IMG/VR virus record: IMGVR_UViG_2870495154_000003
Length of the DNA stretch: 60,319 nucleotides
Reading direction: 5' to 3' (one strand)
Origin: a virus
Lineage: Duplodnaviria; Heunggongvirae; Uroviricota; Caudoviricetes
This document shows, one piece after another, positions 3,713-17,600 of the stretch (within the stretch, counting starts at the first letter, position 1; every line of letters begins with the position of its first letter). The notes under the pieces were generated by a model. That model ran no database searches. It was not told the DNA's origin and saw nothing but the letters and a program-made list of their open reading frames with translations. The translations under genes were made by a program, and so were the position numbers.

Positions 3713-3937
3713 CACCTGTTCACCTTTTGATATTTTATCTTTTAATTCATAATGTTAAGGGGTGAACAGTTTCACAAAAACTATTCACCAACTGTTCACC
3801 ACTGTTCACCCTTGAAGCTCAATAAACAATCAAAAAGGTGAACAGTGAATAGTTTGGTGAACAGTTCATAAATAACTGTTCACCCTATAACATACTGATA
3901 CAAAAGATATTTATGACAGGGTGAACAGTGGTGAACA
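3713..3937. repeat. Iteron cluster / putative replication origin: about 9 copies of GGTGAACAG in both orientations in AT-rich DNA
   Basis: GGTGAACAG or CTGTTCACC at roughly 3716, 3762, 3793, 3803, 3838, 3859, 3877, 3919 and 3929, directly 3' of the primase-helicase gene. Recurs in every copy. Confidence 0.7.
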
Positions 3938-6065: not shown

Positions 6066-6386
6066 TTATCCCCGATTTGAATCAGTATTCGCTTTCTTTA
6101 TGGCATTTAATGCATCTGTGGCATTTTCAATGGTGCACCGTAACGAAATATCAAACTGCCCAAGCATTGCCAGTAACAAGCCAATATTCCCCATGTCAAT
6201 GCGCATAGCCTTTTCGTCATATTCCTCATTTTCTGACGCATGCCACATCAGGCTACCAATTGACGCAACAGCCATTGATATATTGTCAGTAGCCCCATCC
6301 GCAGCGGAATAAACCTTTTTAGCAATATCATGCTCACAGTTAAAATGCGGATTAATCAGGTACTGGTAATTTGACATATCAGGCAT
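6066..6386 (-). CDS. Hypothetical protein (106 aa, [15 protein letters not shown]...)
   Basis: C-terminal part of ORF 6066..6821; the upstream part of that ORF is Pro/Arg/Leu-rich and looks off-frame. ATG at 6384..6386 overlaps the stop of the upstream ORF (ATGCCTGA). Confidence 0.45.
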
Positions 6387-6918
6387 GGCACACCCCCTGG
6401 CGAATACGGGCGGCGAATACAGCAACACAACCGGACGGGCAGCGGTTACGCGCTTCACGTTCCGTCCAGGCGGTGACGTGGATGATTTGATGGTCTGACG
6501 CGCCAAAGATGATAAAGCGCCAGAGAAAGGCGGTTTGAGAATGTACAAGGGTAGGGATAGTAGCCATGTTGGCAGCCTCCTTTGACAGTGAAGAATTTCC
6601 ACCGCAGGAAACGCCAATTTCGCTGGCGGTGGACTGAACGGGGTTGGCGTAACCGGCGTCAAAGGGAACCGGCGCTTCCGAAGAAGCCCCCGCCCAGCCC
6701 ACCATAACTTTGATGTGAGCGAATGCGGACGATAAAAAAGACGCTGGCGCGTCATATATCGCCTTTGACATTTCCAGGACGCCAATCCCGGCACCAGATT
6801 TTGCTGGTGCGGATAAATCATAGCCCTGGCTTGCAGTGGCGATCAACTGGTTTTTTACACCCGCTTTATTCAGGTTGTGCGAGTCCCGCCCTTGCGGGTG
6901 TGTGGTATGATTTCTCAT
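6379..6918 (-). CDS. Hypothetical Ala/Gly/Ser-rich protein (179 aa; alternative 62-aa start at 6567 with AGGAGG SD)
   Basis: 3' part of the 429-aa ORF 6379..7668; in-frame ATG at 6916..6918 with GAGG SD, just beyond the divergent operator region. Confidence 0.3.
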
Positions 6919-7015
6919 AGCGACCTCGATACTATCGTTATCGTTGGTGGTTAGAAGCCCCGTTACTGCTCCAACAGTGCGGGGTTTCGTCGTTTCTGCA
7001 CCTTGCATCAACAAG

Positions 7016-7067
7016 GTGTTGAACACCAATGTAAACTCAGGTGTTGAACACGTCAAGTGTTGAACAC
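7016..7067. promoter_or_regulatory. Operator-like array: three copies of the 11-bp palindrome GTGTTGAACAC
   Basis: Sites at 7016..7026, 7041..7051 and 7057..7067, in the ~200-bp divergent intergenic region between minus-strand ORF start 6918 and plus-strand ORF start 7118. Recurs in every copy. Confidence 0.6.
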
Positions 7068-7117
7068 TTGTTTTTTTTCCTGCATACTGCATTTGTTTTT
7101 TGTGAGGGGTACACAAC

Positions 7118-7297
7118 ATGGCGACAAAAGCAGTAAACGCAAAATCACAAACAGTTGCGGCAAGGGTTCCGCATGAAGTTATGAACAATGTTGAGGCGGT
7201 AAAAATGCCTGGTGAAAGTACAGGGCAATTTGTAACAGCAGCATTAAAGCGAGAAGTTGAATACCGCCAGCGACGCAAGGCTAAAGAGCAAGAATAA
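7118..7297 (+). CDS. Small ribbon-helix-helix-like DNA-binding protein (59 aa), putative regulator
   Basis: Not in the ORF track (below 60 aa). ATG at 7118 with GAGGGG SD 7 nt upstream; translation [59 protein letters not shown]; directly downstream of the palindromic operators. Confidence 0.55.
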
Positions 7298-7354
7298 TCA
7301 CTATCAGCGCTGTGGTGTGAGGTACTCCGGCGCATTGCTTTACAGGTCGGCACT

Positions 7355-7564
7355 ATGAGCAAAAAATACCTATCCACTGAAGAGATTTTCGCAGAACAAC
7401 GAAGATTGCTTTTACAGAGCATTGTTGCACGCCAGAAAGAAAAGGCACACGCTAAACAAATGCCACCAAATACAGAACCAGCGCCTACAAAATTTGCGCT
7501 TGATGAGTTTCTCAATAAACAGCCCCGGGTAATGAAAGCTAACAGGAACCGCCCACCAGGCTGA
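7355..7564 (+). CDS. Hypothetical protein (69 aa)
   Basis: ORF in track, co-oriented with the RHH gene and followed by a plus-strand terminator. Confidence 0.4.
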
Positions 7565-7628
7565 TCACATTGCCCACCAGCCAGCAAATCGCTATGATGG
7601 CTGGGCTTATGTTTAGTGTATTCCCACT

Positions 7629-7660
7629 GGCGACCTCTGATCCGGGTCGCCTTTGTTTTA
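7629..7660 (+). terminator. Rho-independent terminator (GGCGACC-tctgatccg-GGTCGCC followed by TTTGTTTTATG)
   Basis: Read directly from the sequence; sits between the convergent plus-strand ORFs and alpA. Confidence 0.6.
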
Positions 7661-7678
7661 TGTGTCATATGCCCCCCT

Positions 7679-7888
7679 TTACGCTGCCTTGCCTGAATTA
7701 ATGCGATCCCGGCTTTTAACCCATTCCATAACCTCGGACAGCAGCCAACCTACAGAACGACCGCCCAGATTACGGCGTGACGGGAAATTCCCTTTTTTCT
7801 CCAGTTCATAGCGTGTAGTGCGACACACTCCAGTTAACTTACGACATTCATCCTCACGGATTACGCGATCTTCATTTATTTCACGCAT
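7679..7888 (-). CDS. alpA: AlpA-family prophage regulatory protein (69 aa)
   Basis: Motif [43 protein letters not shown] is typical of AlpA-family HTH regulators; lies downstream of int. Confidence 0.8.
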
Positions 7889-17401: not shown

Positions 17402-17600
17402 AGCGACCTCGATACTATCGTTATCGTTGGTGGTTAGAAGCCCCGTTACTGCTCCAACAGTGCGGGGTTTCGTCGTTTCTGCACCTTGCATCAACAAGGT
17501 GTTGAACACCAATGTAAACTCAGGTGTTGAACACGTCAAGTGTTGAACACTTGTTTTTTTTCCTGCATACTGCATTTGTTTTTTGTGAGGGGTACACAAC

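Follow-up and report, generated by a model that had tools for sequence, protein, structure and literature searches.

We examined a 60,319-nt stretch of viral DNA (IMG/VR record IMGVR_UViG_2870495154_000003; hereafter, the window) and, within it, a 199-bp region (positions 6919–7117) in which three copies of a short palindrome lie between a minus-strand gene start and a small plus-strand gene. The window comprises approximately 5.75 head-to-tail copies of one 10,486-bp unit that, judged by gene content and layout, is a phage-inducible chromosomal island (PICI) from Escherichia coli. On its minus strand, the unit encodes an integrase, AlpA, an ash/icd-like open reading frame (ORF), DUF4222, a D5-type primase, SSB, major capsid and decoration proteins, a second AlpA-like protein and a terS-like protein, in the manner of Gram-negative PICIs of the EcCICFT073 type (int, alpA, primase, capsid morphogenesis and terS-like genes in one orientation, a length of ~10–12 kb and a specific chromosomal site). 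Copies of the island, 100% identical over the compared region, lie between clpS and cspD in many E. coli genomes, and the small-gene module was matched in >1,000 of the 5,426 complete E. coli genomes. The unit copies in the window differ from one another by 4–5 single-base indels and by zero substitutions; this indel-only pattern looks like sequencing noise in long reads, whether from a concatemer (replicative or packaged) or from an assembly of one. The palindrome triplets anchored at 17499, 27986, 38474, 48960 and 59447 (one per copy) follow from this tandem arrangement and are not occurrences independent of the triplet at 7016.

The control region is bordered on the left by a minus-strand ATG at 6918 (CAT at 6916–6918) with GAGG ahead of it, and on the right by a plus-strand 59-aa ORF whose GAGGGG Shine–Dalgarno (SD) sequence stands 8 nt before the ATG (coordinates in Table 1). 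Between these borders lie exactly three copies of GTGTTGAACAC, each a 5-bp inverted repeat (GTGTT/AACAC) flanking a central G, with start-to-start distances of 25 and 16 bp, so that the three identical palindromes described in the initial annotation agree exactly with our counts. A scan of both strands found no further exact copies elsewhere in the 10.5-kb unit, and of 20,000 shuffled versions of the region that preserved dinucleotides, only 5 contained any 11-mer at least three times. When extended outward, the first site (O1) spans 13 bp (GGTGTTGAACACC), and the third becomes a perfect palindrome of 17 bp (CAAGTGTTGAACACTTG; O3′) with a run of eight thymines after it.

Covariation of operators and protein strand across relatives

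The 59-aa protein belongs to the YlcI/YnfO family (NCBIfam NF041551, 59.7 bits against a cut-off of 30, E = 2 × 10−16, residues 9–50) and matches PHROG phrog_949 (E = 5 × 10−22); a literature search found no functional study of this family. Its predicted structure is a confident helical, strand-helix-helix model whose structural neighbours are ribbon-helix-helix (RHH) domains, whereas Pfam helix-turn-helix (HTH) families gave zero matches and the C terminus is a basic tail with no extra domain. In the family alignment, N7, S10, R16, H19, G32-E33-S34 and Q37-F38 are invariant and variation is concentrated at residues 11–15, with hydrophobic residues alternating at 13, 15 and 17 as in an RHH strand. 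In an alignment to Arc and Mnt that is itself non-significant, the variable polar residues 12 and 14 and the invariant R16 fall on Arc Q9, N11 and R13, the residues with which Arc reads DNA.

We compared this module with its counterparts in 6 diverged islands of E. coli and in 35 loci of other Enterobacterales. Nearly every locus carries an 11-mer of its own, usually of the form GTG-N5-CAC, and repeats it at matching distances ahead of the small gene's ATG: approximately −102, approximately −77 (directly beside a conserved CGTCAA) and a third at −32, or at −61 in the window's class. The 11-mer followed the strand sequence of the encoded protein: QT[VLI]AAR occurs with GTGTTGAACAC, KKLEAR with GTGTCAGCCAC, KR[IF]D[AV]R with GTGTC[GC]GACAC, Q[SA]LK[SA]R with GTGTGGCCCAC, QS[VL]TAR with GTGTAAGACAC, QKMSAR with CTGGCACCCAG, and QK[LIV]Q[AT]R with GTGGACTCCAC, GTGGAGTACAC or CTGGATTCCAG. 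Between pairs of loci, operators differed by 0.4 nt where residues 11–15 were equal and by 3.4 nt where they were different, and the contrast persisted at matched divergence of the protein remainder (0.1 versus 3.4 nt). The rank correlation between operator distance and strand distance was weak (rho = 0.15), since operator distance is already saturated between classes; the informative statistic is the same-versus-different contrast.

The neighbouring genes do not follow this pattern. For example, locus L002 shares an identical integrase and an identical AlpA (WP_000953274) with L007 and EcCICFT073 and has different operators and strands, and loci L005 and L006 likewise combine one AlpA (WP_000953271) with different 11-mers; conversely, L002 and L003 differ in AlpA and replicase and have equal operators and strands. 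Sites were also conserved beyond their surroundings: in one class spanning several genera, operators were 95–100% identical and the DNA between them 67–75%. The equivalent of O1 was found at approximately −102 in 30 relatives and was 100% conserved across genera within a specificity class, and O2 reached 95–98% identity within class compared with 67–72% for the adjoining spacer DNA. On this comparative evidence, the operator 11-mers covary with residues 11–15 in at least eight classes, independently of the protein remainder, AlpA, integrase and replicase, and specificity tracks N-terminal strand residues, as it does in RHH proteins. The suggestion in the initial annotation that the repeats serve as operators of the 59-aa protein is borne out to this extent: locus-specific 11-mers change with the putative DNA-reading strand.

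Two Xenorhabdus genomes each carry two co-resident modules of different strand/operator classes (L024 and L035 in X. innexi; L026 and L037 in X. mauleonii). These are two cases only, and the difference is as would be expected if classes define immunity groups. In Edwardsiella hoshinae NBRC 105699 (L008, 2800–3180), a 100% identical 59-aa protein is accompanied by a near-identical operator region with one mismatch in O2, and this module has neither the 69-aa ORF that lies downstream in the window nor a C4 cassette (both described below); the identity suggests inter-genus spread or exchange of the module. Among phages, a tblastn search of 50,697 records with the 59-aa protein found nothing, so close homologues in helper phages are unsupported, and only distant family members adjoin cos/terS. 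In lambdoid prophages, the two genes after which the family is named, K-12 DLP12 ylcI (L045, 8252–8446) and CFT073 ynfO (L046, 2101–2334), are divergent from a small terminase/Nu1 gene beside cos, a context that differs from that in PICIs, and a triple repeat was not evident upstream of K-12 ylcI.

Promoters, the antisense frame and the RNA cassette

Predicted promoters on both strands fit the divergent control region proposed at first. On the minus strand, a sigma-70-like consensus scan gave 9 of 12 matches for P_L, an inferred internal promoter that the sites flank and occupy, with O2 in its spacer, O1 over the start region and O3′ just upstream. The EcCICFT073 equivalent (TTGACG-18-TATAGT, 10 of 12) has the same position and operator arrangement, and the TTGA beside O2 is kept in nearly all loci. 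On the plus strand, the small-gene promoter P_R was read from the sequence at 8 of 12 matches, under the scan threshold; relatives retain its −10 element, as TATACT or CATACT, at positions −41 to −36. The position of the third site at −61 is confined to the window's class (the window, L008 and L012); in most relatives, a slightly degenerate third site at −32 covers the −10/+1 of P_R instead. With both promoters being predictions, the layout is that of an autoregulated repressor holding a divergent promoter off. A plus-strand intrinsic terminator would end the small-gene transcript; a strong equivalent is present in EcCICFT073, and, read on the opposite strand, the terminator sequence of relatives specifies the conserved 'KTKA' with which the long minus-strand ORF (described next) begins.

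The control region is not truly intergenic, because a 429-aa minus-strand ORF, which begins just past alpA and ends as the icd-like (kil-like) gene, with ATG 6918 nested in its continuous frame, is a conserved and selected open frame. Read in the frame of the icd-like ATG, the strand opposite the small gene lacks stop codons in all 32 loci compared, and the ~200-bp operator region lacks them in 26 of the 32; the other two minus-strand frames contain 2–13 stops per segment. Stretches of 340–435 open codons are found again in E. coli, Kosakonia, Pectobacterium, Leclercia, Xenorhabdus and Klebsiella, including one of 433 codons in EcCICFT073 that starts shortly past alpA and lasts until the icd-like gene ends. 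The encoded amino-acid sequence is junk-like (Cys-rich in the window) and is unconserved beyond constraint imposed by the DNA, the exception being Bro-N-like N termini in some loci; residues 1–226 gave zero protein-family matches. A similar design is described for satellite P4 by Mageeney and Williams (PMC10111431): eta is a long ORF that is translationally coupled to an alpA homologue and contains an internal constitutive promoter, Kil is the nested C-terminal part of eta, and eta translation on late-promoter transcripts prevents termination. The window likewise has a long ORF beside an alpA/vis homologue that ends as a short nested ORF, with the internal promoter being predicted only.

The nested ORF is 179 aa long in the window (Pfam Phage_ASH, residues 34–127; NCBIfam Icd-like, residues 131–174), and in relatives a 66–68-aa icd-like gene starts at the equivalent of ATG 6918. 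The difference reflects an in-frame insertion of ~111 codons that, directly downstream of ATG 6918, carries a C4 (P4 CI-type) immunity RNA and an isrK element, both above the Rfam gathering threshold; the isrK element ends in a hairpin and U6 terminator at 6740–6753. The window thus has the arrangement of P4 CI/P1 C4 immunity, with a C4/CI RNA and its targets upstream of icd/kil. The cassette was absent from 20 of 20 relatives scanned at the gathering threshold, so it is an extra lock of the window's element and the RHH module is the shared feature. The Phage_ASH match (nt 6816–6537) coincides with the C4 and isrK RNA genes, within an ORF called 'ash family protein' by PGAP, and the Phage_ASH family may be largely a translation of RNA genes. 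In RefSeq, PGAP annotates minus-strand 'incomplete' pseudogenes (ash family, Icd-like or hypothetical) in L001 (8899–9420, corresponding to window 6598–7119), L005, L006 and L007; these span the operator region and the antisense of the small gene, and probably reflect the conserved eta-like open frame, not decayed genes.

Between P_L and ATG 6918, predicted transcripts would carry a structured 5′ leader, for which RNAalifold across 18 loci found compensatory double changes in 12 of 14 hairpin pairs. A second small hairpin lies just before the SD of ATG 6918, and the near-invariant UCUAACCA that follows the leader hairpin is loosely boxA-like. Elsewhere in the unit, the second AlpA-like protein (127 aa; PHROG 'excisionase and transcriptional regulator'; 996–1379, minus) is encoded directly upstream of the terS-like gene (252–806, minus), in a late region that follows the capsid and decoration genes of the island itself. 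An int-alpA RNA motif (Rfam RF02996) lies between int and alpA in some relatives (L009, 5853–5921; L013, 5893–5961; L031, 5519–5587) and was not detected in the window.

Table 1 Coordinates of features in and around the control region, by position in the window
Feature	Position	Strand	Description
429-aa eta-like ORF	6379–7668	−	SD and ATG 7668, 11 nt past alpA stop; antisense through both plus-strand genes and operator region
Nested short ORF, 179 aa	6379–6918	−	ATG 6918; Icd-like C terminus; 'Ash' region overlapping RNA genes
C4/P4 CI-type antisense immunity RNA	6622–6709	−	Rfam RF01695, 82 bits (gathering score 45), E = 2 × 10−15
isrK/c4-a1b1 target-site element (P4 seqA-like)	6734–6823	−	isrK 75.1 bits (gathering 50); c4-a1b1 43.8 bits (gathering 46.7, just under)
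Structured 5′ leader of P_L transcripts	6948–6984	−	Hairpin 6958–6984, then near-invariant UCUAACCA (6955–6948)
O1, GTGTTGAACAC	7016–7026		Exact copy; just downstream of P_L −10, over expected transcription start
P_L, inferred internal promoter (P4 P_LE analogue)	7028–7056	−	−35 TTGACG 7056–7051, 17-nt spacer, −10 TACATT 7033–7028
O2, GTGTTGAACAC	7041–7051		Fills P_L −35/−10 spacer; abuts conserved CGTCAA
O3′, 17-bp perfect palindrome (core 7057–7067)	7054–7070		Upstream of P_L −35; overlaps P_R −35 (TTGAAC)
P_R, inferred small-gene promoter	7060–7088	+	−35 TTGAAC 7060–7065, 17-nt T-rich spacer (T8 7071–7078), −10 CATACT 7083–7088
59-aa YlcI/YnfO-family RHH protein, proposed repressor	7118–7297	+	NCBIfam model; SD GAGGGG 7104–7109
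69-aa ORF, co-oriented with small gene	7355–7564	+	Not an obligate partner
Intrinsic terminator of small-gene transcript	7629–7651	+	T-tract on plus strand only
alpA	7679–7888	−	Pfam Phage_AlpA, E = 3 × 10−16; transcript would read into eta-like ORF

The proposed switch and its alternatives

Together, these features suggest that the early operon, for replication and packaging, is controlled from the 199-bp region, where an RHH autorepressor acts on P_L within a P4-type design, a reading to which we assign a probability of approximately 0.65. We infer that the 59-aa protein, expressed from the rightward P_R, would bind the three GTGTTGAACAC sites as dimers, occupying O2 in the P_L spacer, O1 on the P_L start, and O3′ on both the P_L upstream A-tract and the P_R −35. 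Occupied sites would switch P_L off (and with it the icd-like gene, DUF4222, the primase and genes beyond) and limit the repressor's own synthesis, a small autoregulated repressor keeping the integrated island quiet. DNA specificity would be set by strand residues ~11–15, with the eight or more classes shuffled among islands like phage immunity regions. A helper phage would switch alpA on, and the resulting transcripts would read through, be translated in the eta-like frame and be shielded from premature termination; as they would run antisense through the repressor gene and across the operators to the replication genes, repression may be bypassed and then eroded, and a dropping repressor level would free P_L. 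In the window's element, C4/isrK would form a second, RNA-based lock downstream of P_L. A broader proposal, that YlcI/YnfO-type RHH proteins are the maintenance repressors of enterobacterial PICIs including EcCICFT073, encoded antisense in an eta-like frame, with AlpA-driven transcription bypassing the operators and silencing the gene convergently to form a bistable switch, and with classes corresponding to PICI immunity groups, is offered tentatively, at clearly less than even odds.

Several points weigh against the autorepressor. Binding, transcripts and reporter activity are predictions from sequence, and P_R has 8 of 12 consensus matches. The initial annotation had called the protein RHH-like, which stands for the strand-helix-helix model and its structural neighbours and does not extend to sequence: Pfam RHH families gave zero matches at E values up to 10, a PDB profile search and Foldseek found nothing, and hhalign against Arc and Mnt was non-significant (E = 0.05, probability 1%) though in the expected register. 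A P4-type internal promoter must be active to supply immunity RNA, which sits awkwardly, by analogy, with tight repression of P_L in an element that bears C4. The repressor would not be an absolute lock, because AlpA overexpression alone induces EcCICFT073 (PMC6092414), and the identity of the published 'ORF3' with the eta-like frame could not be confirmed. Finally, operators and strand codons are ~150 bp apart, and linkage could account for part of their covariation, but linkage cannot explain, on the comparisons above, three sites shifting in concert or conservation far above that of the flanking DNA.

Of the alternatives, the strongest retains binding of the RHH protein to these sites and assigns it another role, as a Cro-like or anti-immunity factor that lowers C4 RNA via P_L, or as a roadblock that tunes alpA read-through. 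The position of C4/isrK directly downstream of P_L would suit such a factor, as would the lack of a sensor domain in the 59-aa protein and the supply of immunity RNA by the internal promoter in P4 and P1 (PMC10111431). However, 20 relatives, apparently together with EcCICFT073, carry the module without C4/isrK, and the module's general role therefore cannot depend on C4 RNA; moreover, most relatives have perfect operators on P_L and a degenerate one on the small gene's own promoter, the design of a steady-state P_L repressor. We consider this role unlikely.

It is less probable still that the region does no more than encode part of the 429-aa minus-strand product (a Bro-network, eta-like protein), with the 59-aa ORF as a shadow ORF and the repeats as coding or RNA features. 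Nearly all relatives keep the minus frame free of stops here, PGAP places minus-strand 'ash family' and 'Icd-like' (pseudo)genes across the region, and the two frames share wobble positions, so that both look constrained. Codon-position periodicity cannot separate frames whose wobble positions coincide, but the ratio of nonsynonymous to synonymous differences (pN/pS) does so modestly, being lower for the plus frame (0.29 versus 0.39), and lower in 271 of 281 pairs. In addition, the plus-strand ORF has its own SD, promoter-like elements, terminator and curated family model; its product has a confident helical model, RHH neighbours and residues invariant across genera, whereas the minus translation is Cys-rich and unconserved, with no family match over residues 1–226. 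Three sites changing together between loci also need a common binder. We conclude that both strands are likely to be functional, the minus frame being kept open for translated read-through and the plus gene encoding the RHH protein. The initial annotation had allowed that the 429-aa ORF might be the real gene, and it does prove to be a conserved, selected and P4-eta-like frame, one that coexists with the small gene and does not replace it.

Two further alternatives are each very improbable. In one, the 11-mers are sites at which AlpA, encoded ~600 bp away, activates the early operon directly. AlpA does activate island genes and is needed for induction (PMC6092414), but the comparisons above pair identical AlpA with different 11-mers and different AlpA with an equal 11-mer, and sites inside and downstream of a core promoter have the geometry of repression, not activation. 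In the other, the 59-aa protein is the antitoxin of a type II toxin–antitoxin pair with the 69-aa ORF, and the repeats are its autoregulatory operator only. The 69-aa ORF has weak homologues in E. coli islands but is absent from about half of the other-genus loci, does not lie downstream of the identical protein in Edwardsiella, and gave zero matches in Pfam, NCBIfam, PHROG and PADLOC, and hence no toxin or defence family match; the 59-aa protein has a basic tail in place of a toxin-binding C-terminal domain, and two of the three sites are on the divergent operon's promoter, not on the protein's own.

Least plausible of all is a role as replication-origin iterons to which the primase/helicase would bind: the 11-mer and the GGTGAACA octamer are alike apart from one mismatch (TTGAACA versus GTGAACA), but nine exact GGTGAACA copies lie at 3717–3937 near the primase gene and none in 6919–7117, and the 11-mer is equal where replicases differ (RepA-type helicase in L002, DUF927 in L003) and different where the replicase type is the same (L002 and L005). 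The octamers at 3717–3937, which occur in both orientations between the primase gene and the next gene, probably mark the replication origin; we take GGTGAACA to be the P4 type I iteron.

Comparison with known regulatory systems

The initial annotation cast the 59-aa protein as a master repressor analogous to SaPI Stl or lambda cI. The likeness holds for layout, with transcription divergent from the operon to be repressed, several operators set between back-to-back promoters and numerous specificities across related elements, but fold and domain layout are not shared: Stl and cI are HTH proteins with partner-binding or autocleavage domains, whereas the fold neighbours of the 59-aa protein are RHH, it has zero Pfam HTH matches and no LexA-like autocleavage domain, and a complete C4/isrK cassette lies immediately downstream. 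That cassette and the eta-like frame had both been missed in the earlier reading.

Closer parallels are offered by the RHH repressors Arc/Mnt, CopG, omega and AmrZ, which resemble the present system in very small size, in an R-x-P-x-E-V ... G-x-S signature in the Arc register, in short repeated operators over a core promoter, in autoregulation (predicted here) and in specificity carried by alternate N-terminal strand residues. Differences are the lack of significant similarity between the 59-aa protein and RHH entries in Pfam or the PDB, the arrangement of operators as 11-bp GTG-N5-CAC units 16–25 bp apart instead of adjacent half-sites, and the nesting of the gene antisense in another reading frame. 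RHH autorepressors as such are already known; what is apparently new is an autorepressor candidate from the uncharacterised YlcI/YnfO family, antisense in a P4-type frame and overlooked in a model system.

Among phages, the immI region of P1/P7 (Op51/C1 – c4 – icd – ant) has a protein operator at its operon promoter in addition to RNA control. Like the window, it has a C4 RNA with a1/b1 targets followed by icd (Rfam C4 and c4-a1b1 and NCBIfam Icd-like matches here); unlike P1/P7, the window has a local, divergently encoded RHH repressor candidate and not the distant C1, and replication genes follow instead of ant. The P4 left operon (vis – P_LL – eta/kil – P_LE – CI RNA/seqA) is similar in having an alpA/vis homologue followed by a coupled long ORF, an internal promoter with a nested short toxic-type ORF at the end of the long ORF and, in the window, RNAs of the CI/C4 and seqA/isrK types within the long ORF. 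A tblastn search of 50,697 phage records gave no P4 homologue of the 59-aa protein; the P4 internal promoter is described as constitutive and P4 immunity as purely RNA-based, in contrast to a proposed protein repressor–operator set on the promoter here and to most relatives, which have no such RNA.

Gram-negative PICIs are widespread and are under development as delivery and diagnostic tools. The approximately eight protein-strand/operator pairs form a natural table of potential orthogonal repressor–operator parts, and, if the broader proposal is true, interchangeable classes would define PICI immunity groups. A control region inside a conserved translated frame, with a regulator gene and its operators both lying antisense within another gene, is also unusual and is relevant to annotation (PGAP calls pseudogenes here) and to island engineering, in which edits must respect both strands.

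EcCICFT073 itself, integrated between roxA and phoQ in CFT073, has the gene order of the window's island (int, alpA, ..., DUF4222, primase, SSB, capsid, decoration, terS-like) and shares its nested module, with a YlcI/YnfO protein (WP_000190587), two GTGTGGCCCAC operators and a degenerate third; the window's island differs in operator class and in its added C4/isrK cassette. Neither the EcCICFT073 paper (PMC6092414) nor the Bro-zone and SatelliteFinder papers mention the small gene. In the model of Fillol-Salom 2018, AlpA is the sole regulator and a global repressor in Gram-negative PICIs is stated to be unclear; AlpA is necessary and sufficient for EcCICFT073 induction, its gene's expression is induced by helper phages, and it activates an 'ORF3' reporter downstream of alpA (PMC6092414). 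Published work on an island that carries the same module thus puts helper sensing at alpA expression, and points away from the palindromes, where the initial annotation had placed it. To the published model of an activator, AlpA, without a repressor, our analysis adds a specific repressor candidate with defined operators in an island already in experimental use.

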